From positions 11,486 through 75,485 of IMG/VR virus record IMGVR_UViG_3300046533_000687: 64,000 bases of DNA; one strand, 5' to 3'. Both the position numbers and the translations under genes were made by a program. This document shows, in pieces, positions 10,643-63,817 of this stretch (the first letter of the stretch is position 1; the number at the start of each line of letters is the position of its first letter). The notes below the pieces were generated by a model. That model ran no database searches and had not been told where the DNA came from. It saw only the letters and a list, made by a program, of their open reading frames with translations. Source of the DNA: a virus.

Positions 10643-11598
10643 AGTGGACAAAAGAAGCGGCCATCGCTCATCGAGAGCGCGTAGACGAACGCGCCAACCG
10701 CAAGGCTGACGTCGAGAAGCGAGATTGGGCGGAACACAAGCACGCGCGAAAGCTGAAACGAACGAAGTCCATGCTCGGCGAAGTCTCGAAGGGCATCTTC
10801 GTCAACCCGGTCAACCCGAAGACTGCCGAGAATCAGGTCCAGGTCCTCCTCGGTACGCCGACACTCGGAACGGTGCGCATCGAATGGCACAACATGATGA
10901 AGGGCATGGTCAGCCCGCCGAACTGGTCGCTGATCACCAGCACGCCGACAGGCTATACGGTGCCAGACGCGCAGAACATGCTGGTCGACACGATGCTGCG
11001 TGGCAACCTGCGGGCCTTGCTGCTCATCGAGGATGATACCTGTCCACCTCCGCACGCCATCCTGACATTCGACCGCTGGTTCTGGAAGATGGAGCGTCGA
11101 CTGGCGCCGCCGGTCGTCAGCGGCCTGTATCACATCAAGGGTAGCGCGGAGGTGCGGAATGGCAAGAAGGGCGGAGTCGAACTGCTTGGTCCTGAACCAC
11201 TTGCATACAGGGGGAGTGGGCAGCGTGCCTATCGTGACTGGAAGATGGGCGATGTCATCTGGGTGTCCGGCGTGCCGACTGGTGCACTCCTTCTCCATCG
11301 CTCGATCCTTGAGGCATGGGCGAAAGAGCCGGACGTCGAAGAGTACGCTGTGCCGGGCTACCCGCACGTCATGAAGCGCATCTTTCAGCAGCCGTCGCAC
11401 GTCTGGGTAGATCCCGAGACGAAGGGCGTGCATGTTGCAAGTGGCACCTCGGACTTGTGGTGGTCGGAGCAGACGATCAAGAGGGGCCTGCTCGAGAAGG
11501 CTGGCTGGAAGAAGTACGCGAAGAAGGAGTTCCCATACATCATCGATACGGGCATGCACTTCAAGCACATCGATCGTGCGACGGGGATGATGTACTGA
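10639..11598 (+). CDS. GT-A fold glycosyltransferase-like protein
   Basis: VLLGTPT, AQN.LV, LLIEDD (DxD-like), VVSGLY, GVPTGALLLHRSI and IIDTG..FKHID. Confidence 0.7.
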   Translation: MKWTKEAAIAHRERVDERANRKADVEKRDWAEHKHARKLKRTKSMLGEVSKGIFVNPVNPKTAENQVQVLLGTPTLGTVRIEWHNMMKGMVSPPNWSLITSTPTGYTVPDAQNMLVDTMLRGNLRALLLIEDDTCPPPHAILTFDRWFWKMERRLAPPVVSGLYHIKGSAEVRNGKKGGVELLGPEPLAYRGSGQRAYRDWKMGDVIWVSGVPTGALLLHRSILEAWAKEPDVEEYAVPGYPHVMKRIFQQPSHVWVDPETKGVHVASGTSDLWWSEQTIKRGLLEKAGWKKYAKKEFPYIIDTGMHFKHIDRATGMMY

Positions 11599-11888
11599 TG
11601 GTCACGACAGTTGCATGCCCTGTCTGTACCAAACCACGCGAGGAAGATTCGCCATGTTGGTGGTGTGAGGATGGCCTTTCGAAGACGAAGCACTCGTGGA
11701 GTTGGAAGGGTTGTGGCGTGTGCCACGGATCTTGCCATGGCGGACATTGCGGAAATGGATGTGAGGCATTCGGTGGATGCCGGAAAACTAGATGCATCTG
11801 CAGTCTGATCGGTCCATGTCGCCCGTGGTGGAAGCCGAGATGGCTAGGTAACTGGATGTTTGGAAGGCGAATTCGGAATGTCTACTGA
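11598..11888 (+). CDS. Cys/Trp-rich small protein
   Basis: TGATG coupling to the GT gene; 13 Cys in 96 aa. Confidence 0.5.
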   Translation: MVTTVACPVCTKPREEDSPCWWCEDGLSKTKHSWSWKGCGVCHGSCHGGHCGNGCEAFGGCRKTRCICSLIGPCRPWWKPRWLGNWMFGRRIRNVY

Positions 11889-12138
11889 CAACATCGGCAT
11901 CGCTGACCTTGTCTTCGTCGAGATGCAAGAATGCGCACCACTCGATACCGTTATTGAAGAACAGGTGCATTCAGTAGACGCCGTGCACCCAAGCAACGTG
12001 CTCGCCGGCACGACGCACCGTGACTGTGGTGGAATCGTGCGCTGGGAATATGAGTCGGACAAGCCTGTCGAGTTCGGGCAGGCGCGGTGTAAGAAGTGCG
12101 GACAGGTGGTGACCGTGCGAGGCGCGCTAGTTGGCTGA
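11878..12138 (+). CDS. Hypothetical Zn-binding protein
   Basis: HRDCGG...CKKC; overlaps both neighbours. Confidence 0.5.
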   Translation: MSTDNIGIADLVFVEMQECAPLDTVIEEQVHSVDAVHPSNVLAGTTHRDCGGIVRWEYESDKPVEFGQARCKKCGQVVTVRGALVG

Positions 12139-14908: not shown

Positions 14909-15282
14909 TGGCCATTGATGGAGCACTTGACGGCCTGTTTATCGGTGGTGACAGTGAGGTCGTCTATACGGATAGCGACCCCGTCCCGCCAGACATGGCC
15001 GCGTGGAACATCGTTCTCGATATCAGAAAGAAGGACACGTCGAATTCTCCTGCGCTCTTGTCGAAGATCGGCGTGGTAAGCGGCGTGTATGCCAACACGC
15101 AGGCGGCGAATCAGCAGAAGGTAACATTCACACTGACGGCGGCAGAGTTAGGATCGACGATCTTCAAGGGTGACGATCCACGGATGCGATATTCGATCAA
15201 GAGGACGAACGCGGGTGCCGAGCAGCCGTTGCGCTACGGTGACTGTACCATCATTCGTGTGACGCAGATCGAGGGAGAGTGA
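14908..15282 (+). CDS. Small beta-rich structural/adaptor protein (BppU-N-like)
   Basis: Pattern FIGGD..., VTFTLTAAE, YSIKRT, L.YG...I; coupled to the fibre gene. Confidence 0.45.
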   Translation: MAIDGALDGLFIGGDSEVVYTDSDPVPPDMAAWNIVLDIRKKDTSNSPALLSKIGVVSGVYANTQAANQQKVTFTLTAAELGSTIFKGDDPRMRYSIKRTNAGAEQPLRYGDCTIIRVTQIEGE

Positions 15283-15283
15283 C

Positions 15284-15892
15284 ATGCCGTTAGTCATCGA
15301 TGCAACTGTTGGGGGAGTCGCTTCAAACAGCTACGAGACGCTGGCAGAAGCGCAGGCGTATTACGAGTCGCGCCTGCCGCTATCCGGGTGGGAAGACGCG
15401 GACAGCCAGGACGTGCTGCTGGTCATGGCCACGCGGCTGCTCGAGAACTTCGCGAACTCGCTGAAGGTCCTCGTGCCGGCACAGAACGGCATCGCGGCCT
15501 ACTACCTCATCGAGCGTCGATGGACCGGGATGCCTGCTACCGCGACGCAGAAGCTCTCGTGGCCGCGCATCGGGATGTACGACGTTAACGGGAACCCGAT
15601 TCCAGAGACCGTCATCCCTCAGGAGCTGAAGGATGCCGAGTCCGAGTTCGCCGGGCAGCTTGGCATAGCAGACCGCACGCTGGACAACGACGTGATCGTG
15701 CAGGGACTGACATCCGTCAAGGCGGGCAGCGTGGCGCTGACGTTCAAGAATCAATTTCAGCCACAGGTCGTGCCTGACGCGGTGCTGAACCTGTTGCTGC
15801 CAGGGTGGCTGACCGACGTGGTCGTCGAACCGGCCGTGCCCGCGCTGTTCGACGTCGTATCTGGTCCACGTCATCATGGAGGCTGGTGGTGA
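15284..15892 (+). CDS. Head-tail adaptor (DnaT-like phage family)
   Basis: SNSYETLAEAQAYY, ATRLLE, TQKLSWPR and IPQELKDAESE. Confidence 0.8.
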   Translation: MPLVIDATVGGVASNSYETLAEAQAYYESRLPLSGWEDADSQDVLLVMATRLLENFANSLKVLVPAQNGIAAYYLIERRWTGMPATATQKLSWPRIGMYDVNGNPIPETVIPQELKDAESEFAGQLGIADRTLDNDVIVQGLTSVKAGSVALTFKNQFQPQVVPDAVLNLLLPGWLTDVVVEPAVPALFDVVSGPRHHGGWW

Positions 15893-16272
15893 GCATCCTT
15901 GATGCGCTGCGCGCAGGCGTGAAGGTCGCAGACAAGGTGACGAAGCCTCTGCAGCCGTCGGTCTCCTTCGAGCGCTACCTGAGCGAGGATGGATTCGGTA
16001 CGCGCACCTATGCATCTGCCGTTCCGCTGAAGGCGATCGTCGAGCATAAGCAGCGAAACGTGAGCACGATGACAGGTGAGCTGGCCGTCAGCCGCGCGTA
16101 TGTCATGTTCCTGGACATCGCCGCGTTGGTGATCGCGACGGCAGGGGACGGCGTGGACGTGAATGATAAGATCACGCTGCCGAATGGCGTGACAGGGCCG
16201 ATCTTGAACTTCGACGGCTTCGTGGATGCCGGAACTGGACAACCACTTGCGACGGAGATATACCTCGGATGA
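15889..16272 (+). CDS. Head closure / head-tail joining protein
   Basis: DGFGTRTY, G.LAVSRA and DKITLPNG; follows the adaptor with GTGA overlap. Confidence 0.7.
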   Translation: MSILDALRAGVKVADKVTKPLQPSVSFERYLSEDGFGTRTYASAVPLKAIVEHKQRNVSTMTGELAVSRAYVMFLDIAALVIATAGDGVDVNDKITLPNGVTGPILNFDGFVDAGTGQPLATEIYLG

Positions 16273-17342
16273 CCTTCATCGATTCCCGTCATAAGCTCTT
16301 CGGCCATCTCGACCGCCTCGTCGGCTGGCAGCACGGAGAGCATCCAGCACCGGTGACGGTCGAGTGGGACCTCTCGAACCGCTGCGCGCTCGGGTGCATG
16401 GACTGTCACTTCGCGCACACGCACACACGCGGACCGTGGGCGAGCAAGCCGCGCACCTTACCGATGGCATACGACTCAGGTGGTGACCTGGCTGACATCG
16501 ACGTCGTGCGACGCGGTCTGGACCAGATGGCGCGCATCGGTGTCAAGGGTATCGTGTGGAGCGGAGGTGGAGAGCCGACGACGCATCCGCGATGGCAGGA
16601 CGTCATCGACTACGCCTCGTCGCTCGGTCTGCAGCAAGGCATGTATACGTTCGGCGGACTGTTTGATGAGAAGTCGGCGACACACCTCGCGAGGCATGCT
16701 GAATGGGTCGTCGTCTCGCTTGACGCACCTGACGAGCATACCTACGCGCACGAGAAGGGCGTGCAGTCGTCACGGTTCTTTGCCGCCTGCGACGGTATCG
16801 GGTGGTTGGCGCAGGTGAAGAAGGCGACCGTCGGCGTCTCGTTCCTCTTGCATGCGGACAACTGGACGCGTGCTGGTGAGATGCTGTCGCTGGCACGAGC
16901 GCTTGGTGCGACCTACATCACCTTCCGCCCAGCCGTTCGTACAACGCCGGATGCACCATCAACGTGTACTGACGACCGCTCGTGGATCACCGCCGCGCTG
17001 CCGAACCTGAAGGACTACGAGAGCGAGCCCGATGTCGAGTGTGACGTCGATCGGTTCCTGCAGTATCGAGATTGGACGACGCGGTCCTATTCGACGTGCC
17101 ACGGCGTGAAGTTGACGACGACGATCACACCCGACGGTCGTCTATGGATGTGTCCGCAGCACCGTGGCGTGCCTGGAAGCTGTCTTGGCGACCTCAAGAC
17201 CGAGTCGTTCAAGGACATCTGGTATAGGCATGGTGGTACCTATACACAGTTTGACAACTGCCGCGTCATGTGCCGCTTGCATCTGATGAACGAGACGCTT
17301 GCACAAGTCTACGCGCAGCACGAGCATGGAGCATTTCTGTGA
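16269..17342 (+). CDS. Radical SAM enzyme with SPASM/twitch domain
   Basis: CALGCMDC (CxxxCxxC), SGGGEPT and VSLDA; C-terminal C...ITPDGRLWMC...LGDLKTESFKDIW...CRVMC. Confidence 0.9.
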   Translation: MTFIDSRHKLFGHLDRLVGWQHGEHPAPVTVEWDLSNRCALGCMDCHFAHTHTRGPWASKPRTLPMAYDSGGDLADIDVVRRGLDQMARIGVKGIVWSGGGEPTTHPRWQDVIDYASSLGLQQGMYTFGGLFDEKSATHLARHAEWVVVSLDAPDEHTYAHEKGVQSSRFFAACDGIGWLAQVKKATVGVSFLLHADNWTRAGEMLSLARALGATYITFRPAVRTTPDAPSTCTDDRSWITAALPNLKDYESEPDVECDVDRFLQYRDWTTRSYSTCHGVKLTTTITPDGRLWMCPQHRGVPGSCLGDLKTESFKDIWYRHGGTYTQFDNCRVMCRLHLMNETLAQVYAQHEHGAFL

Positions 17343-17968
17343 TCAACGTCTGTATCACCGTGTTCAACCGTTACGACCTGCTTGCCCGTCTCTTCGCGTC
17401 GCTTGGTGCTAGCACGGTGCAGCCTGACGAGGTCTACGTCATCGATCGCGGAAATGATCCCGTCCGACTGAAGCATGCCGCCAACGGACGCCCGTTCATC
17501 ACGGTGCCGCTCGAAGGGCAGAGCCTCCCGGCAGCGTGGAATTGGTTCATGTCGAACGTCGAGGAGGAGCGCGTCATCGTAAGCGATGACATCGAGTTCT
17601 TCCCTGAGACGTTGGAAACCTTCTTGAAGACGCCAGGTGACCTTGTCGGACTGGAGGATGGCAAGTCGAGTCACTTTGCCTGCTTCGCGCCGCGCAACAG
17701 CTGTATCAAGAAGGTCGGGTTCTTCGACGAGTCGCTGTCACCCGACTACATGTATTTTGAGGATAGCGACTATGGCCGACGCATGCTCCTGTTAGGCATA
17801 CCGATCGTCGGCATCTCGTGCATGCATCACGGCTTGGCGCAGTCGTGGGAGAAGAAGACGGAAGCGCAACGCAGCGATCACCATCGGCGGTTCATGATCG
17901 CGCAGGACAACTATATCAAGAAGTGGGGCGGCATCCCTGGGAAAGAGAAGAAGCATGCAGATCGGTAA
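17339..17968 (+). CDS. Glycosyltransferase family 2
   Basis: VCITVFNRYDLL, VYVIDRG, IVSDDI and VGFFDE....YFEDSDY. Confidence 0.88.
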   Translation: MINVCITVFNRYDLLARLFASLGASTVQPDEVYVIDRGNDPVRLKHAANGRPFITVPLEGQSLPAAWNWFMSNVEEERVIVSDDIEFFPETLETFLKTPGDLVGLEDGKSSHFACFAPRNSCIKKVGFFDESLSPDYMYFEDSDYGRRMLLLGIPIVGISCMHHGLAQSWEKKTEAQRSDHHRRFMIAQDNYIKKWGGIPGKEKKHADR

Positions 17969-18470
17969 CCTCTATCATCATCGCGTACTTGGAATGCTGG
18001 CGACGCGGACGCAGAGCTACCTGGAGATCGGCGTACAGGAGGGTGATTCGCTAGCAGCTGTCGTCGCGGCGAACAGGGAGATCGACGTCACACTCTGCGA
18101 TCCATGGGATGCTAATCACGGCGGCACGAACCGTGGCTCACACCACCACATTCAGGAGCGCTTGAACACGCTCGCGCATCGGGGTAAGCGCTGCTACCTC
18201 GACGGGTTCTCGTCTGTGGAGATCCCGAAGATCGACTGTCAGCACTTTGACCTCATTCACGTTGACGGCGATCACTCCTATGAGGGCTGTAAGAATGACC
18301 TCAAGATGTGCTGGCCGATGACGTTACGCTACCTCGTGGTTCACGACGTGTTCTTCCAGGAAGTACGTGACGCGGCGTTTCAGTTTCTCGAGTGGCACCA
18401 CGCGGAGTTCGGTGAGGTATCATTCTCTGCATCAGACCACGGGACTCTGGTGATCGAGAGGGAGCGATGA
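17955..18470 (+). CDS. Class I SAM-dependent (O-)methyltransferase, Methyltransf_24-like
   Basis: YLEIGVQEGDS, FDLIHVDGDHSYE and LVVHD. Confidence 0.85.
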   Translation: MQIGNLYHHRVLGMLATRTQSYLEIGVQEGDSLAAVVAANREIDVTLCDPWDANHGGTNRGSHHHIQERLNTLAHRGKRCYLDGFSSVEIPKIDCQHFDLIHVDGDHSYEGCKNDLKMCWPMTLRYLVVHDVFFQEVRDAAFQFLEWHHAEFGEVSFSASDHGTLVIERER

Positions 18471-19711
18471 AAAAGCTCCTCTGGGTCGGCGATGCCTGCG
18501 TGAGCTCGGGGTTCGCCCGAGCGACGCATAACATCCTCGACACGTTGCGCTACGTCTTCGACGTCCAGGTGCTCGGACTGTGTTACAGCGGTGACCCGCA
18601 CGACTATCCGTACAAGGTCTATCCCGCGTACAGTGGTGGAGATGCGTTCGGCGTCGGGCGTGTCAAGGACATCGCGGAGTCATTCAAGCCGGACGTTATC
18701 GTCATCCAGCAGGACCCGTGGAACTTTCCACCATACCTCGAGCAGCTCAAGGGGATCGACGCGCCTATCGTCGGACATGTGGCCGTTGACGGTAAGAACT
18801 GCGCCGGAGAGAAGTTGCAGGGGCTGGCGGCCTGCGTCTTCTGGACGATGTTCGGGGAGGCGGAAGCGAAGGTTGGAGGCTATGTCGGGCCGACAGAAGT
18901 CATCCCGCTGGGCGTCGATCGTAACATCTACAAGCCTCTGGACAAGATAGAGCTGAAGGCGAATATCATAGGCCCCGTCCTGGCCGTGCAGCATCTCCCT
19001 GCCGACTCATTCGTCGTGGGCGTGGTCGGGCGTAATCAGGAACGCAAGCGCCTCGACCTGACGATCCGGTACTTCGCCGAGTGGGTGCGGTCGCACAAGG
19101 TTGAAGATGCCTGCCTGTGGTGCCACGTTGCGCCGACCGGCGATCAGGCGTATGACATGCACCAGCTCGTGAAGTATTACGGGATGGGCGGTCGCGTGTT
19201 CGCGCCTTCTATCAATCCGGTCTACGGGCTGCCTGAAGCGTCGATGGCAAAGGTGATCAACCTGTTCGACGTGTTCTTCTCGACCACGCAGGGTGAGGGA
19301 TTCGGTCTGCCGGCACTCGAGGCGATGGCGTGCGGCGTGCCGCCACTCCTGCCAGACTGGTCGGCGTATGGCGACTGGGCGCGTCGAGGCGCGACGCTCG
19401 TGCCCTGCTCCTCGACCGCCGTGACGCCGCACATCGGCGGCGCGGTACTCGGCGGCATCATGGACGAGGAGAAGGCCATCGAGAAGCTGCACTGCCTCTA
19501 TGCCGAGAACGGTCTGCGTGCGCGGCTGTCACGCCAGGCGCTGGACCTTGCCTCGCAGCCCGAGTTCCAGTGGCCGGTCATCGGGGATGCCTGGCTGAAA
19601 GTGCTCTCAGATGTGCTCCAGAACTGGCCAGGATTGGCTGTGGAAGCTGAAAAGGACGCGGCCGTGGCTAACCCCTTCCAGAGCCAGGCTGTGGCAGAGG
19701 TGGCATCATGA
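18467..19711 (+). CDS. Glycosyltransferase family 4 (GT-B)
   Basis: SGFAR, IPLGVD, VGRNQERKR and GEGFGLPALEAMACGVP (EX7E motif). Confidence 0.92.
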   Translation: MKKLLWVGDACVSSGFARATHNILDTLRYVFDVQVLGLCYSGDPHDYPYKVYPAYSGGDAFGVGRVKDIAESFKPDVIVIQQDPWNFPPYLEQLKGIDAPIVGHVAVDGKNCAGEKLQGLAACVFWTMFGEAEAKVGGYVGPTEVIPLGVDRNIYKPLDKIELKANIIGPVLAVQHLPADSFVVGVVGRNQERKRLDLTIRYFAEWVRSHKVEDACLWCHVAPTGDQAYDMHQLVKYYGMGGRVFAPSINPVYGLPEASMAKVINLFDVFFSTTQGEGFGLPALEAMACGVPPLLPDWSAYGDWARRGATLVPCSSTAVTPHIGGAVLGGIMDEEKAIEKLHCLYAENGLRARLSRQALDLASQPEFQWPVIGDAWLKVLSDVLQNWPGLAVEAEKDAAVANPFQSQAVAEVAS

Positions 19712-50381: not shown

Positions 50382-51227
50382 TTATTTTCCCTCCGGAAAC
50401 TTTCCCAACTTCGCCTCTCCCGCCAGCCGCTTCACGTCGTCCGGAAAATCGCTCTTCAGCAGCCAATCCCAGTAGTCGTTCGGAATATCACGCATCGCTT
50501 TGCCGCGATACTTGCCAAATGTCACGCACGGCACGCCGTCGATAAACATGAACTTACCATCCGAATCGATCGTATCTCCCCACTGCGCCTTGTGCAGCGT
50601 CTCGACGTCCCTTGGCAGTGTCGTATGCACCTCCAGCTGCTTCGCGATGACCGCGGCCGCTGCCCGCACGTCGGACAACGCGCCGTGCGCGCCGTCGTGC
50701 TTCAGGCCGACATACTTCTCATGCAGGTGTGACAAGGAGCGCGGCACGGCCAGGCGCTCCAGCTGCCCGCTGTCGACGATCCGTGCTCCGGCGTAGGACC
50801 ATGGAACACCTGCACGGCGAAACTCGGCGGACAAGATGCGAAGATCGAATCTAACATTTTGGCCTGCTGCATCAAAGTCGGTGAAGCCTTTTGCGAGATT
50901 CGCGGCGAGCTGCTTGAAGGTTGGAACGGGCTTAAACACATGCCCCTCGTGTCCCGTGATCTCACGATCCGACAAGCCGCACTCGCGACAGAGTTTCATC
51001 GAGTCGTCTGTGATGCCGTGAATCTTCCTCGCCCCCTCCGGAATCGGCACACCCGGATTAACCAGCGAGCACCACTCCTTCGTCATGCGAGCTGTTCGTT
51101 TTCCTGTCAGGTCGTCAGGCTCCCACACCTGAAATGCGATCTCCACGATGCGGTCCTGGTCGACGTTGATGCCGGTCGTCTCGGTGTCGAGGACGATCAG
51201 CTTGCGGGTGAGGTGGATGGGGATCAT
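50382..51227 (-). CDS. DEDDh 3'-5' exonuclease (DnaQ/epsilon-like)
   Basis: VLDTETTG, IHGIT, GQNVRFD and HGALSDV; C-terminal FGKYRGK module. Confidence 0.9.
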   Translation of the reverse strand: MIPIHLTRKLIVLDTETTGINVDQDRIVEIAFQVWEPDDLTGKRTARMTKEWCSLVNPGVPIPEGARKIHGITDDSMKLCRECGLSDREITGHEGHVFKPVPTFKQLAANLAKGFTDFDAAGQNVRFDLRILSAEFRRAGVPWSYAGARIVDSGQLERLAVPRSLSHLHEKYVGLKHDGAHGALSDVRAAAAVIAKQLEVHTTLPRDVETLHKAQWGDTIDSDGKFMFIDGVPCVTFGKYRGKAMRDIPNDYWDWLLKSDFPDDVKRLAGEAKLGKFPEGK

Positions 51228-52654: not shown

Positions 52655-53713
52655 TTAGGTTCCTCTCATCAACATTATCACCCCGACGTGGTCGTCGCCA
52701 TCCGTCAGCAGCATCGCGCTGCGCTCATCTTTCAGCGAGATGGTGACGTCACCCGCCGCGTCCAAAAAGTCAAGGACGTAGCCGCCGTTCACGCAGACCT
52801 TGAGCGGTACGCCCTCGTAGCCGATCGCGACCGCCTCGTCTGCCGACCCGACCTCCGCCGACCGTGACGACAGCTCCATCGTCCCAGGCGCGATGCTCAG
52901 GTAGGTGGCTAGATTGTCCTCTGAGACGAGGATGACGCGCTTCAGTGCCGAGGTGAGCGCGGCCCGGTCGACCGTGAACGCCTTGTCATTGTCGCGCGGG
53001 ATGATCCGCTCATACTTCGGGAACTCCCCGTCGATCGTGCGCGATGTCATCGTCATGGTACCATGCGTGACGTGCAGCTGCCTGCCGACGGTCAGCGCAA
53101 CCTCACCATCCGGCAGGCTGGCGAGCAGGTCCAGAGCCTTCGCCGGGATGATGATGCTCGCGTCCGGTCCCTGCCAGCCGGCCGTGGCCATCGACAGCCG
53201 CTTGCCGTCCGTCGCCACCATCGCCGCGCCGCCGCCGACGAACTTCAGCAGTGCGCCCTTCAGGATGAACTTCGACGCCGTGGCGTCGACCGCGTACCGC
53301 GTCCTGGTGATCAGCTGCTTGAGCGCCGCCGCGTCGATCGTACCGGGCTCACCTTCGACCGTCGGCTGCGTCGGGAAGTCGTTCACCGGCATCGACTGCA
53401 GCTTGGACGTGAAGCCGCTGCACTTGACGACGACCTGCTGCCCGTTCGCCGTGATGCTGACGTCGGCATCGGGGAACTGCTCGACGAGCGCCAGGAACCG
53501 TGCCACCGGTAGCGCGACGCGGCCGGGCTCGACGACGTTGGCCTGACAGGCTGTCGAGATGCTGACCTCAAGATCCGTCGCGTAGGAACGAAGCTGGTCG
53601 TCGGCGGTCAGGAGGGCGTGGCCGAGGATGGCGATCGACGGCTTCGTCGGGACGACGCGGTTGAGGAGGCGGAGTTCGACGGCAAGGACTTGCGAGTTGA
53701 CTATGATGTTCAT
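52655..53713 (-). CDS. dnaN: DNA polymerase III beta sliding clamp homologue
   Basis: ATDLEV, MVATDGKRL, IIIPAKAL, IDGEFPKYERIIP, N..YVLDFL and VIMLMR. Confidence 0.93.
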   Translation of the reverse strand: MNIIVNSQVLAVELRLLNRVVPTKPSIAILGHALLTADDQLRSYATDLEVSISTACQANVVEPGRVALPVARFLALVEQFPDADVSITANGQQVVVKCSGFTSKLQSMPVNDFPTQPTVEGEPGTIDAAALKQLITRTRYAVDATASKFILKGALLKFVGGGAAMVATDGKRLSMATAGWQGPDASIIIPAKALDLLASLPDGEVALTVGRQLHVTHGTMTMTSRTIDGEFPKYERIIPRDNDKAFTVDRAALTSALKRVILVSEDNLATYLSIAPGTMELSSRSAEVGSADEAVAIGYEGVPLKVCVNGGYVLDFLDAAGDVTISLKDERSAMLLTDGDDHVGVIMLMRGT

Positions 53714-53843: not shown

Positions 53844-54419
53844 TCATACTGCTCCTACTTCGTTCCCGATCGTCGTCCATCCCGTCCGCTCGCGGCGTGC
53901 GAACAGCTCGAGGTATGGACCGGCGACCAGCGACTCGACGATCGAATAGAACTCGTCAGGCTTGGCCGAGTGCCTGGTGTTGATGGCCGACAGCCCGGCG
54001 AGGTCGAGGTCGGTGACGAACGTGCTCCGCGTAGAGTGGTTCAGCAACTCGGGTCTACCGCGCGTACAGACGAGGCACGTCTCGTGCTCGGCGCGCAGCG
54101 TCCGTCCCATCCCGAACCACCGCTGTCCAGTACTGGTCTTCTTCAGCCAGACGAGATCCGTCTTGACGACGAAGCCCCACGCCTGCGCGACGTCGAGTGC
54201 TGATTGTTGTTGGGATGCAACACGCCACAAAAACAAGACCGCGTCGTTGGCGATCGGCTGGTCCATGATCGTCACGCTGCCATGCCCCTTCACCGCCAGC
54301 TGGCAGATATCGTACGTCGTCATCAGCGGATAGTGCTTCGCCGCGCCACGTCCCTCTCCGGGCAGCTTGTCGTTGAAGGGCCACGGCGGGTCCGCACAAA
54401 TAACCTTGAATGGAGTCAT
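53844..54419 (-). CDS. MT-A70 family N6-adenine methyltransferase
   Basis: ADPPW, LFLW, HSAKPDEFY and YLELFARR..GW..GNE. Confidence 0.9.
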   Translation of the reverse strand: MTPFKVICADPPWPFNDKLPGEGRGAAKHYPLMTTYDICQLAVKGHGSVTIMDQPIANDAVLFLWRVASQQQSALDVAQAWGFVVKTDLVWLKKTSTGQRWFGMGRTLRAEHETCLVCTRGRPELLNHSTRSTFVTDLDLAGLSAINTRHSAKPDEFYSIVESLVAGPYLELFARRERTGWTTIGNEVGAV

Positions 54420-54856
54420 AGCGTCGTCATCAATCGCTGCATGAAGTCGTCCATGCGCCTCTTGTTGTCAGGATCGTTCCACCATCTCGAGGCTCCCGAC
54501 GGATGCGGCACGACGGTCACCTTGGCGTGGTTCAGCGCGAACGTCTCGAAGTACGCGACGCTCGTCAGCCTGAACGCCGAGGCGACGCGCTTGCCGAGCA
54601 ACAGCACGACCTGCCCGACGCCGAACCGCTGCTCCATCACGCGGGCGACCCGCGCGGCCTGCTTCATGTTGAACGTCATGCCGCCGGCAGCATCCTGCGG
54701 CTGTTCGTCAAGCAGGTTCACACGGTCGAAGGTCGTCAGGAACTCCTCGAAGCTGATGCCTGCACATGCCGCCAGCCGCGCTCCCGTCCGCCCCTCGAGC
54801 GGCCTGCTCGGGTCCCAGCTCTTGCCGGGCGCCTCGCCGATGATGAGCGGTTTCAA
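54416..54856 (-). CDS. Uracil-DNA glycosylase superfamily protein
   Basis: IIGEAPG (motif A), GRTGARL, LLLGK and VPHPSG (motif B). TTG start overlaps the upstream stop, with GGAGAGG RBS. Confidence 0.8.
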   Translation of the reverse strand: MKPLIIGEAPGKSWDPSRPLEGRTGARLAACAGISFEEFLTTFDRVNLLDEQPQDAAGGMTFNMKQAARVARVMEQRFGVGQVVLLLGKRVASAFRLTSVAYFETFALNHAKVTVVPHPSGASRWWNDPDNKRRMDDFMQRLMTTL

Positions 54857-55623
54857 AATAGGTACCTCTCCCCTTCTTCTCCATGCCTCAGAGGCCGCTG
54901 CGGAAACGTCCTCCAGATGTTCGACGGGAGGATCGTCTGCTTTCCATACCGCAGTCCCTGCTGAAAGACGCCCGGCCACCGCTTCAGCAGCCCGGCATTG
55001 CGTGCTTCACGTCCTCCGGAGAGGTACATCTCCGTGTTGCCTCCGCTCATCTTGCACGACGGCGCCTTGTCCATCAGCAGTCGGTTGAAGATGATCGTGC
55101 ACCATCCGGCGTCGAGAACTTGCAAGCTGTAGTCTGTATCTTCACACAGCTCGTCACGCCACGTACACGGCACGTCGTTACGCACCCAGACGCAGCTGTA
55201 CGCCTGCCTGTTGATCGAATATGGTTTGTCATGCGTCCAGGCGAACGTCGTCTGACAGAGTGAGGCGATGGCGACGTTCACGTAGGGCTCGAGCTCCACC
55301 TCTGCGGCATGAAGGACGAGATGCGCGAGCTCCTTGCGGTTCTTGTCATCACGGATGCCGAACCACCTGATGTTGTCGTCGACCTGCCAGTGCGACGCAT
55401 GACCGGCGGCCTTCGAGTGCTCCTTGATCGATCTCCGCGCGTAGGCGATGCCCTTGTTCGACTCTGGCAGCACGACCAGCTCGACGCCTGGATGCTGCTT
55501 CGCGTAGTCTTCGGCTTCATGCGGCTCGACGACGAGCGTGAAGGGGACGTCCAACTGCCTGGCCGTCAGGCAGGACGCGGCGCGGCCGCGCGAGGGGACG
55601 TAGATGGGGGATCTAGGCTGCAT
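54853..55623 (-). CDS. TAGT/GREB1-like (TET-associated) glycosyltransferase, stand-alone
   Basis: PIYVPSRGR, LVVEPHEAEDY, HWQVDDNI, EDTDYSLQVL..GWCTIIFN and MSGGNT. Confidence 0.8.
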   Translation of the reverse strand: MQPRSPIYVPSRGRAASCLTARQLDVPFTLVVEPHEAEDYAKQHPGVELVVLPESNKGIAYARRSIKEHSKAAGHASHWQVDDNIRWFGIRDDKNRKELAHLVLHAAEVELEPYVNVAIASLCQTTFAWTHDKPYSINRQAYSCVWVRNDVPCTWRDELCEDTDYSLQVLDAGWCTIIFNRLLMDKAPSCKMSGGNTEMYLSGGREARNAGLLKRWPGVFQQGLRYGKQTILPSNIWRTFPQRPLRHGEEGERYLF

Positions 55624-55990
55624 GGGCAAGGCAAATTTGATCCACGAGCCACCGCATGTCAAATCCGACGATGAAGACGTCGGGTTCCATCGTCTTGAGC
55701 CGCTTCGGATGCACGATCAGCGTGCGCTTGATACCGCGCCGCTCTTCCCAGATGATGTAGCGCGCATAGCCGCAGGCGGCGAGCCGCAGCATCGTCAGCT
55801 CTTGGATGCCTTCCGACGTGATGCCTGGCTGCGCATGCTTCGCTTCCCACCAGCTCGTACGCCCGCCCATCGTCACCGAGATGTCAGGGATGCCGGAGGT
55901 GAAGCGGTCCTCATGTCGGAGCGCGACGCACTTGAGCGTGGCACGCAGCTCGCGCATGAGGGAGGACTTGTATTCAGCTTCGCGTTTCAC
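55613..55990 (-). CDS. VRR-NUC-like PD-(D/E)xK nuclease
   Basis: E...K, GIPDI, WWEAK and downstream Q; typical position after PolA. Confidence 0.7.
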   Translation of the reverse strand: MKREAEYKSSLMRELRATLKCVALRHEDRFTSGIPDISVTMGGRTSWWEAKHAQPGITSEGIQELTMLRLAACGYARYIIWEERRGIKRTLIVHPKRLKTMEPDVFIVGFDMRWLVDQICLAHAA

Positions 55991-56199
55991 GAAAAGACCT
56001 TCTGCGCCCTCAGCAACTTGAGCATGGTCTTGCACGCGTCGCACTTACACGGTTCCACGAGCGACATCTTACGCAGCGCGTCAGACTTCTTCTCTTCGAC
56101 GATCGCATGTGTCCGCTCGTCGCTGACGATGAATCCCGGCTTGAGATAGATCCACCATCCATCAACGTCATGCTCGATGTTCTGGATTCGCTTGTCCAT
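55987..56199 (-). CDS. Small hypothetical protein with its own promoter
   Basis: GGAGG RBS; C-terminal CKCDAC. Confidence 0.6.
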   Translation of the reverse strand: MDKRIQNIEHDVDGWWIYLKPGFIVSDERTHAIVEEKKSDALRKMSLVEPCKCDACKTMLKLLRAQKVFS

Positions 56200-56264: not shown

Positions 56265-59200
56265 TTACTTGCATTCCGCCCAGTTCGGCCCGGACTTGGT
56301 CGACCACAGGATGGGAACCTTCAGCGCGTAACTCTGCGCGTTCAGGATCTCGCTCACCCGCGATCGCGTCTCTGGCAGCGTCGCGTCGCCGCCCACCGCG
56401 TCGTGGATGGTCAGCCGCATGACGAAGCCCGTGTGCTTGCGCTCGCGGTGCAGCTCGGCAAGCTTCCGCTTCATGATGTCAGCGCCGGTGCCTTGAAGTA
56501 CGCGATTCAATCCGATGTACGTCTTGCTGTTTCCGGCGAAGCGCGAACGCCTACCGACGAGCGTCTTCACGTAGCCGCGGTGCGGGAGCTGACGGTGGAG
56601 CGCGTCACCGCGCTTGCAGAACTCGTCGCATGCCGGCTTCGCCAGATGCGAGGCGCGGTCGAGCAGCGCGCCGGCCTCCGGCATCATCTTCCGATAGATG
56701 GCCTCGATCTCCTTCGTCGTCTTCAGGCGCGGATCATCCCAGCGCTTCATCCTGCGGATCTCGTCACCCTCGTCGGTGGTGATGAAGCCCATCATGACGG
56801 CGAGCTTGATCGACTTGGCGCCGTACTGGAACGCGAAGTTGTAATTCTTCGTATGCCCGTACAGCATGTCGGGCTTGTACTCCTTCAGCATCTTCCACGT
56901 GACCTTGTGATACGAGACGGGCTCCTCGCCGCGCGCGAGACGGTTCATGTCGTCGGCATACTCCGCGATCAGCTTCCGATTGTCCATGTAGTGCACGAGC
57001 AGACGCTGCTCGATCTGCATGGCGTCAGCCTCGAGGTACTGCACTACCCAGTCGGAACCTGCCGTCGCAGATCCAGGAACGAACAAGGCCCTCGGGAACA
57101 GCTCGTCGCCGAACACCGCGAAGTGATTGTCGTGGTTCGGAACCTGCTGCACGTAGCCGATCGAGAACCGGCCGCTCACCGTCCCGCCGTCGTCACCCTT
57201 CAGCTGATTGATGTCGAAGCGCATGATGCCGTCCGCGCCGACCGCGTCACGATATGCCTTGAACGTCTTGCTGTCGAGCGACGCGTACTGCGCCGCGAGG
57301 TGCGCCTTCCTGACGATCGGATGATCGATGCCGGCGATGATGGCCTCGGCGTTGCCGTCCGTCGGCGGCAGGCCGAGCCGCTCGAAGAGCGCCTGCCAGC
57401 CCTTCGCCGTGTGGTCGAACGGGAACCCGCACTCGGCATGGACCTCGCTCAGGAGCTTGTCATGCCTCTCGTTGCACTCAGCGTGGTACTGTTCAAGTAA
57501 TGCCAGATCAAGAGGCGACCCATTCTTCTCCATCTCGACGACCGCCGGGATGACGTCATCCTCCAGCTGCTGCACGTCGAGCAGCTCCTGCTTCTCAAGC
57601 TCCGGGTACATGACGTCACGCAGCCGGCCGACGACCTGCGCCGTGTAGCGCTCGCGCGACGCGACCTCGGAGGCATGATGCTCGTGGTGCCGCGACTCGT
57701 CGACGCGACCGACCTCCACGTTGCCCGGCAGGTAGTCGAGGGCCAGCGTGTCGAGGGCGAACGGCTTGCGGCCATCCTTGCGATACTTGCCACGCTGATC
57801 GTCAAGCAGTGCCGCCGTGTGCTGAATGTCGCTGAACGTGCAGCCATGCGCCTCCAGGTCGACGCCCCACTCGCGTGCCATGTGCATGTCGAAGCGCGTG
57901 TTGGCGTTGATGATCTTTTTGCCGCGCAGCTGCTCGCAGGCCCACCGCTTGACGGCGGCCTCGTCGAGGTTGCCGCCGTACTGGAAGCGAAATGGCAGGA
58001 AGCGCGTCAGCTGGCCGTCAAGCGTGCTGACAGTGACGCCGACCGGTCTGGCGCCCTTCGTCCAGTCAGCCCCGTCGGTGGCGAAGTTCAGCACGACCGC
58101 GTCGATGCCAGTCAGCTCGGGCGGCTCGTCGGCTATGTATGAGGCGTCGACGCGCGGCGGCTCGCTGCCGAGGAACTGGGCGAGGGTCTGCGTCGGCTCT
58201 TCAAATAAGGTTGCTGATGCTGACCTTTCGGCATCATGAACTGATGGGCGGCTAACCCCCGCCGCAGCACCAGCAACCTGCTCCGAATCTCCACCGTTCG
58301 GAACCGACGGCTCTTGACGACGGGAGCTGTCAATCCATTCTTCGGCGAGCGCGATCAGCGCGTCGCGGTGCTTCTTGATCACGGCGCGCTCGACATCCGT
58401 CAACGTTGACGCATCAGAGACGAAGAATTTGCCGTCGCGTGTCAACAGACGATGTCCCTTTACGGCCAGGTAGTCCTTGAAGAATTGCGGGTCGAACGGA
58501 ATCTGCTCTGGCTCTTGTCCAGATGGTCTGTCAGGCTCCTGAGGATTGGCTGTGGCCGTCTTTTCCTCAGGCTGGCTAGGCTTATCTATCCCGGCCGGTT
58601 CGATGGCTGCCACCGGCTGGAGGAAGGAGCTCCACGATGGCCCCTTTGTGGCCGACGGCCCCGCCGGTCTTGCCTTCGGTGAGAAGCTCCTTGGCGCTGA
58701 GAAGCTCCTCGCCGGTGATGGGCGCGGCGCTCGCTCGGGCTCATCCACCTCGACCAGCTCCAGCCCGTACTCGTCCACGCCCTCCGGCACGACGCCCGGC
58801 CGCGGAATCAGCGCGTTCCGGCGAAACTGCCGATAGTCCACGTAGTGCTGCCAGCGATGGAACCGCCTGCCGACAGTCGTCACGTCGGGATGCTGGCGCT
58901 TCAGCGACGCGGCCATCCGCCACCGGCCGTCCTTCTCAAGGATGGCGATCCCCTCCGGGCACGTCGGGCTGACGTCGACCTCGCAATCCGGGCACGTCGC
59001 GGCATGCGCCTCCCACGCCTTGGCGATCGCCTCCGCGCCGAGATAGATCGGCGTGTTGCCGCCCTTGACCTGCATGGTCGGCATCTTGTAGGCGTTGAAG
59101 TTGTTGAACTGCACCGTGCACCATCCGTCCTTCAGCGCGCGGAGGCAGATGTCGGTGTCGTCGTTGTAGACGTCACGGTGCCGATACGGAATCTTGTTGT

Positions 59201-60089
59201 TGATCAGCGAGTTCGAGTAGACGCGCGTGTTCAGGACGTACGGCGGGAACGACCCGACCTTCCGCGAGATGAACATGAAGTATTGGAAGCCGGCCACGGC
59301 GACGTTCTCGTACCTGTCGACGAAGTCCTCCGCGATCCGCATGCACGTCCCGTCGGCCGTGCGGATCTGCCGGTTCTCGTGGTAGCGATAGAACTCCTTG
59401 ATGTTGTCGTCGAGCTGCCAGTGTCGCTCCGCGCCAAGCGCGATCGCGTGCTCCATGATCCAGATCCGCGCCGGGACGAGGCCGTCCAGGCCGGCCGGCA
59501 GCTCGAGGAACGTGCCGGACTTGACGACACCCTCGTACCGCTGACGCTCCTGCGGCTGGACGACGGCGTAGTACGGGACGCCGATGCGCTCGAGGCACTT
59601 GATGGTGTATGCCGAGTCCCACCTGCCCTTCGTCGGAACGTAGACCGGATACCGCGGATTCAGCGGCCGCGTACTCTTCCACCGCACGCCGTTCACCTTG
59701 TCGATGGCGGCTGGTGGGAACCACGCCGACTTCGTGTCGTCGGTGACCTGGATGCCGACCTCTCGCGCGAACGTCTGCCGGCCTGCCTGGTCCTTGAAGC
59801 GCATGTCAACCGTCTGCCACGGCGTCAGATCCTGATGGTGATATGCCGGCATACCCTGCCACGTGTCGTGCCAGTTTGATGGAATGTCAAGCAGGTCGGG
59901 CTGCGCGACGTCTGTCGTCTCGAGCCACATGAAGTCTGGCGGCAGGCGACTGACAAAGGGATAGTAGAGCGTGTCGCTGAACGGCTGGCGGGTCAGCACG
60001 AAGAACGCGTGCCTATCCTCTTGCGTCGCGAAGTGGACGAGCAGGTTCAGCTCGTCGGCGACCTCGTCGTCTTCAAGCTCAAACAGCAT
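56265..60089 (-). CDS. polA: Family A DNA polymerase fused to an N-terminal TAGT/GREB1-like glycosyltransferase
   Basis: Polymerase motifs GTVSGRFS, ADAMQIE (A), KNYNFAFQYG (B), GYVKTLVGRR, NRVLQGTGADIMK and IHDA (C). GT motifs YPVYVPTKGR, HWQLDDNI, YNDDTDICLRAL..GWCT and KGGNT. Confidence 0.9.
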   Translation of the reverse strand: MLFELEDDEVADELNLLVHFATQEDRHAFFVLTRQPFSDTLYYPFVSRLPPDFMWLETTDVAQPDLLDIPSNWHDTWQGMPAYHHQDLTPWQTVDMRFKDQAGRQTFAREVGIQVTDDTKSAWFPPAAIDKVNGVRWKSTRPLNPRYPVYVPTKGRWDSAYTIKCLERIGVPYYAVVQPQERQRYEGVVKSGTFLELPAGLDGLVPARIWIMEHAIALGAERHWQLDDNIKEFYRYHENRQIRTADGTCMRIAEDFVDRYENVAVAGFQYFMFISRKVGSFPPYVLNTRVYSNSLINNKIPYRHRDVYNDDTDICLRALKDGWCTVQFNNFNAYKMPTMQVKGGNTPIYLGAEAIAKAWEAHAATCPDCEVDVSPTCPEGIAILEKDGRWRMAASLKRQHPDVTTVGRRFHRWQHYVDYRQFRRNALIPRPGVVPEGVDEYGLELVEVDEPERAPRPSPARSFSAPRSFSPKARPAGPSATKGPSWSSFLQPVAAIEPAGIDKPSQPEEKTATANPQEPDRPSGQEPEQIPFDPQFFKDYLAVKGHRLLTRDGKFFVSDASTLTDVERAVIKKHRDALIALAEEWIDSSRRQEPSVPNGGDSEQVAGAAAGVSRPSVHDAERSASATLFEEPTQTLAQFLGSEPPRVDASYIADEPPELTGIDAVVLNFATDGADWTKGARPVGVTVSTLDGQLTRFLPFRFQYGGNLDEAAVKRWACEQLRGKKIINANTRFDMHMAREWGVDLEAHGCTFSDIQHTAALLDDQRGKYRKDGRKPFALDTLALDYLPGNVEVGRVDESRHHEHHASEVASRERYTAQVVGRLRDVMYPELEKQELLDVQQLEDDVIPAVVEMEKNGSPLDLALLEQYHAECNERHDKLLSEVHAECGFPFDHTAKGWQALFERLGLPPTDGNAEAIIAGIDHPIVRKAHLAAQYASLDSKTFKAYRDAVGADGIMRFDINQLKGDDGGTVSGRFSIGYVQQVPNHDNHFAVFGDELFPRALFVPGSATAGSDWVVQYLEADAMQIEQRLLVHYMDNRKLIAEYADDMNRLARGEEPVSYHKVTWKMLKEYKPDMLYGHTKNYNFAFQYGAKSIKLAVMMGFITTDEGDEIRRMKRWDDPRLKTTKEIEAIYRKMMPEAGALLDRASHLAKPACDEFCKRGDALHRQLPHRGYVKTLVGRRSRFAGNSKTYIGLNRVLQGTGADIMKRKLAELHRERKHTGFVMRLTIHDAVGGDATLPETRSRVSEILNAQSYALKVPILWSTKSGPNWAECK

Positions 60090-62441: not shown

Positions 62442-62993
62442 CTACATCGTCGCGACGGCCGCCAGCTTCGCCTTGCGCTTGGCCAGGTTGGCCTCGGCGC
62501 GGGCGATGCGCTCGGCCTCGGTCGGCTTCGGCTTGGAGGCGCGGAGGGCGGCGCGCTCTTCCTTCGTGAGCTTCGGCTTTGCCTGCTTCACGGCCTTGGC
62601 CTTGAACGGACCCTCCAGCGTCGCGGGCGGGTATCCGTCGAAGGCGCCAACTGGAAGGTGGATGCTGATCGCGGCGCCGTCATAGATGGCGCGCTTGCCG
62701 TTCTTGCTGAGACCCTTGAGTGTCAGTGTCATGTTCTGCTCCTGCTGCGCTGCAGCTGGTTGGTCTGGCTGAATTGCCTCGACCCCGATAGGTGATTCTA
62801 CATCTTTTTCATTCGGCGTGTCTACAACTTTCTCCATCGGCTGCGCGGCGAGGAACGCGACGTACTCGAGCTTCTCGGCCTGAGACATAAACTGTGTTGG
62901 ATCTGGTTCCTTTCCTTTCTTCGGCTTCTTGGTCCCGAGCGGCCTCGCCTCGTTCTTCGGCATCTTCTTCCCGTACGTCTTGATCTTGCTCAT
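62442..62993 (-). CDS. Basic Lys/Ala-rich protein with two in-frame starts (62993 and 62732)
   Basis: AGGAG RBS before both ATGs; histone-like basic C-terminus. Confidence 0.6.
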   Translation of the reverse strand: MSKIKTYGKKMPKNEARPLGTKKPKKGKEPDPTQFMSQAEKLEYVAFLAAQPMEKVVDTPNEKDVESPIGVEAIQPDQPAAAQQEQNMTLTLKGLSKNGKRAIYDGAAISIHLPVGAFDGYPPATLEGPFKAKAVKQAKPKLTKEERAALRASKPKPTEAERIARAEANLAKRKAKLAAVATM

Positions 62994-63162
62994 CTCTCCT
63001 CCTTTGAAGCTCGCATCTTGATCGCGAGGTGAATCCACCACGGCCACGGTTGGCGCATCGGTCCAGCAATCCGCGTGATGCGTCCGGGCTGTTCGTTGAT
63101 GAACGCGGCGCACAGCATTCCTTTGCGGAACTGACGCGTTCGACGCTTCTGGGCAGTACGGC

Positions 63163-63817
63163 TCATTGCTTCTCCTTTGTCTCAAACTGCTTGATGTTAT
63201 TCGAGGTGATGAGGCTAGCGTTCTTCCCCTGCTGATTGACGATGAACTCCCATCCCTGCTCATCTCTCGTCAGAAAGCCGCTGACCGTCTTCTTCCCGAC
63301 GTAGACGCACGCCGGGATGGTGAAGAACGTGTCGGCCTCGGCTGTGGCGAACGCGTTCCGCGCCCTGCCATCTTCGCACGGACAGCGCTCGACGCGTGCC
63401 ACGCTGCCGAACGCGTCCGGCGTGAGGAAGCTGCGCGAGCCGTTCGGGTGCTCGGTACACGTCTCGGCGGCGACAGAGAATTTCAGGCCCATAACACCTT
63501 CCACGCCACCAGCAGGGCCGCGGCCATCAGGATCCAGAGCCATCCGTATCGCGTCCGTCGGCTGCGCTCGTCGCCTGTCCAGACTATTGGCATCACTTCA
63601 CCTCTTCTGGCTTTGTTACTACAACCTGGATGGGATACTGACCATCAATGTCAATATCCGTGTTCGACCAATCGGCGCCACCTGGAACGCGAAAGAACAT
63701 CCGCACATCATCCTCTACATCGATCAGCCCAGGGTATCTCGCTACCAGCATCTGGCGTAAGTCGATACCGTCGACCTTCATCTCGATACACTGCTTGATT
63801 CTCGTCGTCGCCTTCAT
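63163..63817 (-). other. Small hypothetical early genes (about 63163-63492 and 63593-63817)
   Basis: ORF track 63163..63543 and 63593..63868, with RBS-preceded internal ATGs. Confidence 0.5.

Follow-up and report, generated by a model that had tools for sequence, protein, structure and literature searches.

A TAGT-type glycosyltransferase head on a phage family-A DNA polymerase: a candidate for replisome-tethered DNA glycosylation

A glycosyltransferase head on a phage polymerase

The gene described here (P0001) codes for a single protein of 1274 amino acids, in which a glycosyltransferase (GT) unit of the TAGT family precedes a family-A DNA polymerase (PolA). It lies on the (-) strand of a 64,000-nucleotide stretch, referred to below as the window, which comprises bases 11486-75485 of the 75,485-bp IMG/VR viral contig IMGVR_UViG_3300046533_000687. 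The contig is that of a tailed phage, with an estimated completeness of 92%. An initial annotation of the window had read the gene as one uninterrupted open reading frame (ORF) with two copies of a small alpha/beta module, a complete TAGT GT-A domain with a CPDC..C insert, a Pro/Ser linker, an exonuclease-like domain and a PolA domain, a layout that our analysis bears out with a single correction in the exonuclease. The ORF is indeed uninterrupted, and its GC content at third codon positions of 0.84, in a genome of about 60% GC, is consistent with a genuine coding sequence. Its parts are as follows.

56265..60089 (-): whole fusion gene, 1274 aa, with modules, TAGT head, linker and family-A polymerase
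59904..60089 (-): module A, aa 1-62, first beta-alpha-beta copy (strand 14-20, helix 23-33, strand 40-43)
59652..59903 (-): W-x-GMP motif and module B, aa 63-146 (strand 92-98, helix 101-111, strand 121-124)
59055..59651 (-): TAGT (PF20691) GT-A catalytic core, aa 147-345
58740..59054 (-): C-terminal extension of the GT unit, aa 346-450, helices and a beta-hairpin, with the C366-x-x-C369...C377 insert
58503..58739 (-): low-complexity Pro/Ala/Ser linker, aa 451-529
58290..58502 (-): small 'mid' domain, aa 530-600
57510..58142 (-): 3'-5' exonuclease-like domain, aa 650-860, with a degenerate Exo I motif (N668-F-A670-T-D)
56265..57509 (-): family-A polymerase domain, aa 861-1274

Both halves are recognized by profile searches. 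The Pfam profile for TAGT (PF20691) matches aa 147-344 (E 2e-37, 129.4 bits against a cut-off of 27.5) over its full length, positions 1-205 of 205, in agreement with a six-frame search, and that for DNA_pol_A (PF00476) matches aa 864-1272 (E 3e-19, 69.5 bits against a cut-off of 34.3). PHROGs profiles place a DNA polymerase at aa 680-1274 and the 'beta-glucosyl-HMC-alpha-glucosyltransferase' family at aa 145-369. An AlphaFold2 model of aa 1-470, computed from an alignment of 68 fused and free homologues, has a predicted local distance difference test score (pLDDT) of 89 and a predicted template modelling score of 0.86. It contains beta-alpha-beta units at aa 14-43 and 92-124, a GT-A core at aa 149-335 and a helical and hairpin extension reaching to about aa 447; modules A and B also match each other in BLAST. 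Compared with solved structures, the head model aligns with GT-A enzymes of families GT2, GT27 and GT13 over 190-240 residues with Z-scores of 13-14, and in Foldseek it yields matches with E-values of about 1e-6 and a probability of 1.00, the top viral matches being TAGT-annotated proteins. The GT-A fold, on which the initial annotation had made its reading depend, thus holds. The nearest solved folds include the protein O-glycosyltransferases GalNAc-T2, POMGNT1, COLGALT1 and LH3.

Throughout the 68 fused and free homologues, D227-D228-N229, D311-T312-D313, K335, G343-G344-N345, H400 and H415 are invariant, and the two acidic motifs are also invariant in 37 fusions; the C-terminal extension, with H400, R412, H415 and Y419, has invariant positions of its own. 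We take the two acidic motifs to be the metal- and donor-binding residues, as in GT-A enzymes generally. As the catalytic residues are invariant across the 68 sequences, the head looks catalytically competent. Its small N-terminal module appears to belong to it: of the TAGT heads, 47 of 54 carry the W-x-GMP motif of module B, which none of 59 other heads has, and module B reaches a pLDDT of only 56 when folded alone, against more than 90 together with the GT core. Because folding is predicted only in the presence of the core, we read module B as an accessory subunit of the glycosyltransferase rather than as a free domain. A search for the module in the protein atlas returned unnamed viral clusters only, with scores of at most 0.82, and no named relatives. 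Module A is confined to the closest fusion relatives and, as the first copy, to stand-alone glycosyltransferases of about 500 residues, in which the module is duplicated as in the fusion head. Many phages seem to encode the module apart from the GT ORF, since at many loci that match the module this ORF begins near the core. In one 515-residue stand-alone homologue (L009:6105-7649, (+) strand) the W-x-GMP module and a TAGT domain come after a ParB-like N-terminus, an arrangement that links such units to the ParB-dependent 5mYOXs (PMC13229309).

Head and polymerase are joined by a linker with 17 Pro, 11 Ala and 11 Ser among the 80 residues at aa 450-529, with low pLDDT where it was modelled (aa 451-470; the model stops at aa 470). 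The 'mid' domain that follows (aa 530-600) is part of the polymerase, as headless PolAs carry the same domain N-terminally. The polymerase itself retains the invariant residues D1022 of motif A, K1081, F1085 and Y1089-G1090 of motif B and H1229-D1230 of motif C. A profile of the fusions finds 7pbk_A as the closest solved chain (E 2e-28); despite this relationship a Z-genome is unlikely, PurZ (PF00709) being absent. The correction mentioned above concerns Exo motif I, which reads N668-F-A670; we located it from its distance to Exo II in the alignment with 7pbk, so that its assignment is partly inference. NFATx is the commonest form of the motif in the clade, independent of head type. Because N-F-A stands where D-x-E is expected, the exonuclease of the fusion is probably inactive. 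A separate gene for a DnaQ/RNase T-type exonuclease is conserved nearby (50382-51227), and proofreading is probably left to it, in trans. The family-A enzyme of the fusion is the sole DNA polymerase found in the phage.

The fusion is real and not an artefact of assembly. At least 54 clusters (at 90% identity) have PF20691 and PF00476 in a single protein, 37-98% identical to the query; they are drawn from JGI, ENA, NCBI and Logan assemblies, on contigs of up to 80 kb, and the fusion is present on five independent IMG/VR contigs (L004, L084, L085, L102 and L107). The initial annotation had named the search for homologues with both domains in one ORF as its key test, and had considered that close relatives might always encode two genes; homologues of the former kind are recurrent, and close relatives do not invariably have two genes. 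The junction (57800-59300) is covered by contigs of four metagenome runs not flagged as its likely source, and one 797-nt contig crosses the linker with one substitution and zero gaps. Neither stop nor frameshift is seen in the linker in independent assemblies. Strain variants from other soil and rhizosphere metagenomes have indels of -3, +9 and -18 nt in or near it, at window positions 58143, 58335-58341 and 58630-58651, all of which preserve the frame. The indels of these divergent strains are all multiples of three; selection maintains both halves in frame. At least 24 metagenome studies of rhizosphere and soil contain the phage, with no RNA run among the sequencing runs listed for it. Among cultured phages, a megablast search with 14 kb of the contig gave zero matches and none has the fusion; the PolA half alone finds matches there, at about 25% identity. 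In our scan of viral contigs a single-sequence query matched nothing, and alignment queries succeeded.

Interchangeable heads of family-A polymerases

In the PolA clade of the query, the N-terminal slot is filled by a TAGT unit (54 clusters), by an N6/N4 DNA methylase of the PF01555 type, by a ParB_N domain or by nothing. The PF01555-type heads form 34 clusters by head similarity, 20 of which have a precomputed PF01555 match, and another occupant of the slot gives a weak match to Dam-like D12 methylases. We computed a maximum-likelihood tree of the exonuclease and polymerase region with 119 rows and counted changes on well-supported branches, which amount to at least 15 for the TAGT label and at least 13 for the PF01555 methylase label. 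Some sister polymerases differ in head type alone; the sister pair P0004 (TAGT) and P0073 (methylase), for instance, lies 0.12-0.14 substitutions per site from its common node. Conversely, identities to the query are discordant between the two halves, at 79% for the TAGT core of P0051 against 35% for its polymerase, and at 51% against 79% for P0009. Given this discordance and the label changes in the tree, the sequences indicate that the heads are shuffled by recombination. Unfused states also occur: in L005 a module-plus-TAGT gene lies 2.5 kb downstream of a headless PolA, in L103 a methylase of the PF01555 type is encoded on its own upstream of a headless PolA, and unfused GT genes near headless PolAs are found in L095 and L101 as well. 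In the four methylase-headed genomes that we checked, there is no TAGT. In P0081 (1572 aa), a methylase-headed PolA, a PF14528 (LAGLIDADG/intein-type) domain suggests an intein in a head-bearing polymerase.

How far is the association with polymerases specific to this clade? A recurrence search restricted to residues 63-450, among proteins of 700-2230 residues, gave 48 matches, of which 43 are PolA fusions, with the head at the N-terminus wherever the domain order was checked. The GT unit heads two further PolA groups in addition to that of the query, three altogether, and the recurrent fusions include PolAs with a canonical PF01612 exonuclease. In another PolA lineage (P0125, P0130 and P0137) the fusion has the composition TAGT-UDG-Exo-PolA, including a uracil-DNA glycosylase (UDG), in an order shown for P0125 and P0137; the polymerase of these proteins scores 179-360 bits against PF00476 and looks far more like Pol I than that of the query. 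The other five of the 48 comprise tandem TAGTs, a fusion of TAGT to GT4 and a TAGT protein whose C-terminal part is unassigned. Among these 48 long proteins, PolA is the only replisome protein that occurs as a fusion partner. The recurrence of the fusion on PolA is our main argument for tying the work of the glycosyltransferase to DNA synthesis. Clustering the neighbours of 80 free homologues of the GT unit yielded generic phage genes only (terminase, SbcCD-like, clamp loader, portal); the free homologues have replication or packaging genes around them, and no protein partner is constant.

The acceptor and the proposed function

What could be the acceptor of the sugar? Characterized DNA-acting TAGTs use a hydroxyl group supplied by another enzyme, which is carried by glucosylated hydroxymethylcytosine (glucosyl-hmC) in T2 and T6 and by 5-hydroxymethyluracil (5-hmU) in the pathway to base J (PMC13216743, PMC7968844). 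On this precedent the initial annotation had a hydroxymethylated pyrimidine in mind, although it recognized no TET/JBP enzyme or hydroxymethylase in the window. The absence extends to the whole 75.5-kb contig. The thymidylate-synthase superfamily (PF00303), which spans hmC and hmU synthases and a 5-hydroxy-dCMP synthase (PMC13390438), has zero matches there, with controls working; the TET/JBP family (PF12851) likewise has zero, a weak negative, as no control genome was positive either. Zero matches were also obtained on the contig for the 2-oxoglutarate-Fe(II) families PF13640 and PF13532, for C5-methylases (PF00145) and for ThyX (PF02511). Pfam scans of most ORFs of at least 190 residues and of many smaller ORFs of the replication module detected no acceptor-making family, and direct reading of the unannotated ORFs of this module turned up no dioxygenase-like protein. 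Beyond the contig, PF00303 and PF12851, the latter again searched without a positive control, have no match in five records that carry the fusion, of which two are 100% complete, or in 40 with a free GT unit, of which seven reach at least 90% completeness. A comparison of the gene content of seven genomes with TAGT and six without found only antisense shadow ORFs to track it. Nor did we meet the T-even-type pair of a dCMP hydroxymethylase and a GT-B glycosyltransferase, the glycosyltransferases here being GT-A TAGTs, GT2 and GT4. Since none of these enzymes was detected, a hydroxymethyl-pyrimidine produced by one of the known phage routes is probably not the acceptor, and the expectation of the initial annotation on this point is not supported. 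The head behaves like a self-sufficient, exchangeable accessory, in the manner of the methylases. Its acceptor may be native to ordinary DNA, in which case the chemistry would be new; otherwise it is provided by an enzyme of the host or by one that escaped detection, or the target is not DNA.

We hold replisome-tethered DNA glycosylation, inferred from these observations, to be the best reading, and a fairly probable one. An intact TAGT GT-A unit, attached to the phage polymerase at its N-terminal end through a flexible linker of some 80 residues, would travel with the replisome and raise the local concentration of the glycosyltransferase at the fork, where it would place sugar from a host nucleotide-sugar on freshly made phage DNA. 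By analogy, this would be the covalent counterpart of the T4 alpha-glucosyltransferase on the gp45 clamp. A stand-alone TAGT paralogue encoded nearby (TAGT2, described below) may attach a second sugar or fill sites that the head missed, and the likely role of the modification would be protection from host nucleases, as an alternative to that conferred by methylase heads. As the head sits on a long flexible linker, the fusion would impose proximity rather than obligatory coupling; the idea of the initial annotation that DNA would pass through no unprotected interval is conjectural. The proposal of replication-coupled modification in the initial annotation thus gains from the methylase heads on sister polymerases and from the T4 precedent, but its premise of a hydroxymethylated acceptor finds no support.

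Several points weigh against this reading. That DNA is the acceptor is deduced from the fusion partner and the gene context, and the absence of any acceptor-making enzyme leaves the O-glycosylation chemistry of the family without an obvious DNA substrate here. Within the clade TAGT is optional, being present in 9 of 26 records, and a linker of such length and apparent disorder allows for loose coupling to synthesis. The TAGT family also includes GREB1, a protein O-GlcNAc transferase (PMC7968844), and in T4 clamp binding is not the main determinant of the share of glucosylation (PMC13216743). Finally, a cluster of GT2, GT4, radical-SAM and O-methyltransferase genes among the structural genes shows that protein or glycan targets exist in the phage.

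Some of these points lead to an alternative that we consider unlikely, in which the head glycosylates a protein, which might be the polymerase itself in its Ser/Pro-rich linker, another component of the replisome or a virion protein, and the fusion to PolA serves stability, regulation or co-expression. The O-GlcNAcylation of protein by GREB1 (PMC7968844), the protein O-glycosyltransferases among the nearest solved folds, the Ser/Pro/Ala-rich linker, the lack of a DNA acceptor pathway and the other glycan genes among the structural genes would all fit. Yet on sister polymerases the same slot houses DNA-acting PF01555 methylases or DNA-binding ParB_N domains, the GT unit is fused almost solely to PolA (43 of the 48 long proteins), UDG-PolA enzymes included, its free homologues lie near replication and packaging genes without a constant protein partner, and the characterized phage and kinetoplastid TAGTs use DNA-linked acceptors (PMC13216743, PMC7968844). 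The recurrence of the fusion also bears on another explanation, which seems to us to have a similarly small chance: that the head does modify DNA, but that the fusion brings no mechanistic coupling. A glycosyltransferase gene just upstream of polA would then have lost its stop codon and so have come to share one reading frame with it, and the product would have persisted as harmless or as a means of fixing co-expression and stoichiometry. Such an origin agrees with the unfused GT genes near headless PolAs, with a variable, low-complexity linker that measures 81-375 residues from the end of the GT to the start of the exonuclease (median about 200), and with the small contribution of clamp binding by the T4 alpha-glucosyltransferase to the share of modification (PMC13216743). 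It does not lead one to expect, however, that the fusion would recur on three PolA groups, N-terminal in all cases checked, that natural indels in the linker would preserve the frame, that two other kinds of DNA-modification head would occupy the same slot, or that no other replisome protein would serve as a partner for the long GT-unit proteins.

Could the conventional acceptor, a hydroxymethyl- or hydroxy-pyrimidine, be present after all, whether from a divergent dioxygenase or synthase, from an enzyme encoded in the 8% of the genome that is missing, or from the host? A hydroxyl acceptor is common to all characterized DNA-acting TAGTs, the contig is estimated at 92% completeness, the PF12851 searches had no positive control, and thousands of contigs retrieved by phage 5mYOX profiles lack a PF12851 annotation (PMC13229309). 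Against this stand the absence of any thymidylate-synthase-superfamily gene in searches whose controls worked, of 2-oxoglutarate-Fe(II) families, C5-methylases and ThyX from the contig, and of PF00303 and PF12851 from the two 100%-complete fusion-carrying genomes; the negative Pfam scans and the lack of a plausible dioxygenase among the unannotated proteins of the replication module; and the lack of any gene co-varying with TAGT in the comparison of seven genomes with six. On balance we find such a pathway quite improbable. To return to replisome-tethered glycosylation of DNA, a more daring version of it, which we put forward tentatively and regard as rather doubtful, is that the tethered head and the orphan module-plus-TAGT units glycosylate a canonical, unmodified base or another native position of DNA during synthesis. 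An exocyclic amino group would be one candidate acceptor, in parallel to the amino-methyltransferase heads of sister polymerases. If this were true, there would be DNA glycosylation without a hydroxymethylase or dioxygenase step, and the PolA clade would represent a modular 'write-as-you-copy' platform with interchangeable epigenetic heads.

The fusion extends both the known accessory-domain fusions of PolA and the known replisome-associated DNA glycosyltransferases. Among the latter, the T4 alpha-glucosyltransferase was co-purified with gp45, the sliding clamp, which is the basis for the proposal that glucosylation goes along with replication (Sommer et al. 2004, in PMC13216743); a re-test in 2026 confirmed the binding to gp45 and found expression strength to weigh more for the share of modification (PMC13216743). 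The two systems are alike in that a phage DNA sugar transferase associates with the replication machinery. However, the T4 enzyme is a separate protein of GT-B fold (GT63) that binds the clamp non-covalently and acts on 5-hydroxymethylcytosine from a phage dCMP hydroxymethylase, whereas the query has a GT-A TAGT covalently attached to the polymerase and no hmC pathway that we could find. With the beta-glucosyl-HMC-alpha-glucosyltransferase of T2 and T6 and the kinetoplastid base-J glucosyltransferase, the head shares PF20691, the GT-A fold and the conserved acidic motifs. Those enzymes are stand-alone, depend on an upstream hydroxymethylase or JBP/TET enzyme and use the DNA-linked acceptors glucosyl-hmC and 5-hmU; the query, in contrast, has N-terminal modules, a Cys/His-rich extension, a fusion to PolA and no detectable acceptor-making partner. 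In the latter respect it resembles the 'solitary TAGT' phages (PMC13216743), which also have no known acceptor-making enzyme, but in which the TAGT is free-standing and is not reported to be fused to a polymerase, nor is a pattern of swappable heads on a PolA clade described for them. As for the hypermodification clusters that combine a 5mYOX (TET/JBP) enzyme with a glycosyltransferase, no match to PF12851, PF13640 or PF13532 is found here, but PF12851 matched in no control genome and divergent 5mYOXs are known to escape it (PMC13229309).

As for the polymerase, UDG-PolA fusions have been described in N4-like, SPO1-like and SP15/YerA41-like phages (PMC13697223, PMC10201439), and their authors regard polymerases as platforms that recruit extra activities (PMC13697223). 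There as here, an accessory DNA-processing enzyme stands at the N-terminus of a phage family-A polymerase, and P0125 and P0137 combine both; the repair glycosylase removes a base, however, whereas the transferase adds a group. Moreover, the UDG of the query phage is encoded by its own gene, outside the polymerase polypeptide. The 2023 reclassification of family-A polymerases mentions no fusion to a glycosyltransferase, methyltransferase or ParB domain, and a preprint on the exchange of polymerases among phages mentions no such head fusion. The initial annotation knew of no described TAGT-PolA fusion, and our literature searches, which did not cover the TAGT-defining study of Iyer et al. 2013, similarly found no description of a glycosyltransferase-PolA or methyltransferase-PolA fusion.

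The enzymes that modify phage DNA are as a rule free proteins, which have to find their substrate once it has been replicated. Interchangeable heads, comprising a sugar transferase, two kinds of amino-methyltransferase and ParB_N, would show that 'writing' has been wired to 'copying' repeatedly, which is relevant to the way phages evade restriction and CRISPR during the first seconds of existence of the new DNA and would offer a natural design for mark-depositing polymerases. Solitary TAGT homologues are present in 288 of the 753 phage genomes that encode such glycosyltransferases (PMC13216743), and for these orphans the fusion is the strongest contextual clue so far that they act on DNA.

Gene neighbourhood and further observations

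The first 11.5 kb of the contig code for a primase-helicase-like AAA_25 protein, terminase, portal and MuF, and are followed by capsid and tail genes. The replication module occupies the (-) strand from about 39 to 64 kb and contains, beside the fusion gene, Pam3 gp33/gp34-like proteins, SNF2, the DnaQ-type exonuclease, a beta clamp, an MT-A70 enzyme, a UDG, a second TAGT and a PD...ExK-type nuclease. Near the fusion gene the features are these.

55613..56044 (-): nuclease-like gene, PD...ExK-type motif read from the sequence
54853..55662 (-): TAGT2, second stand-alone TAGT paralogue, 269 aa, PF20691 E 4e-36
54416..54979 (-): UDG-superfamily gene with GEAPG and HPS motifs
53844..54419 (-): MT-A70-family DNA methyltransferase
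52655..53713 (-): DNA polymerase III beta-type sliding clamp with three domains
50382..51227 (-): DnaQ/RNase T-type 3'-5' exonuclease, candidate proofreader in trans

The nuclease-like gene lies directly downstream of PolA and is conserved across the clade. TAGT2, which the initial annotation had missed, lies 600 bp downstream of the fusion gene; it is 34% identical to the core of the head and keeps the DDN and EDTD motifs, and has neither the module nor the C-terminal extension. TAGT units are often paired, either in tandem double-TAGT proteins or as neighbouring genes (P0122, P0123; L023:10081-12336; L011, L014, L081, L102), and in L102 a free TAGT ORF of 518 residues lies immediately upstream of a TAGT-PolA fusion. 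The UDG gene overlaps TAGT2, and its real start is probably downstream of this overlap. Together with MT-A70 it sits between the free TAGT and the clamp (53844-54979); the arrangement of UDG, MT-A70 and clamp is repeated in L004, and MT-A70 adjoins the clamp in L085.

Also missed by the initial annotation was the glyco-cluster at 9.3-19.7 kb (window 9278-19711, (+) strand), located amid head-tail connector and structural genes. It encodes a 454-residue double methyltransferase, composed of a Methyltransf_23 and an RMNT/CmcI rhamnosyl-O-methyltransferase domain (E 4e-41), a DnaT_2-like single-stranded-DNA-binding protein, a radical-SAM/SPASM enzyme, a GT2 and a GT4. In mycobacteriophages virion proteins are glycosylated; the cluster may serve virion-protein glycosylation or the elaboration of a DNA-linked sugar.

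Two further genes deserve mention. On the contig outside the window (L003:8275-10899 in contig bases, (+) strand), an 874-residue MuF-like protein with a C-terminal MuF domain gives, at aa 126-181, a weak match (E 0.001) to Tpt1/KptA, an RNA 2'-phosphotransferase of the ADP-ribosyltransferase fold. At window 62442-63263 (-), the annotated ORF of 273 residues probably starts at an internal Met near residue 91, from which it would code for a Lys/Ala-rich basic protein with no family match that is conserved in some relatives.

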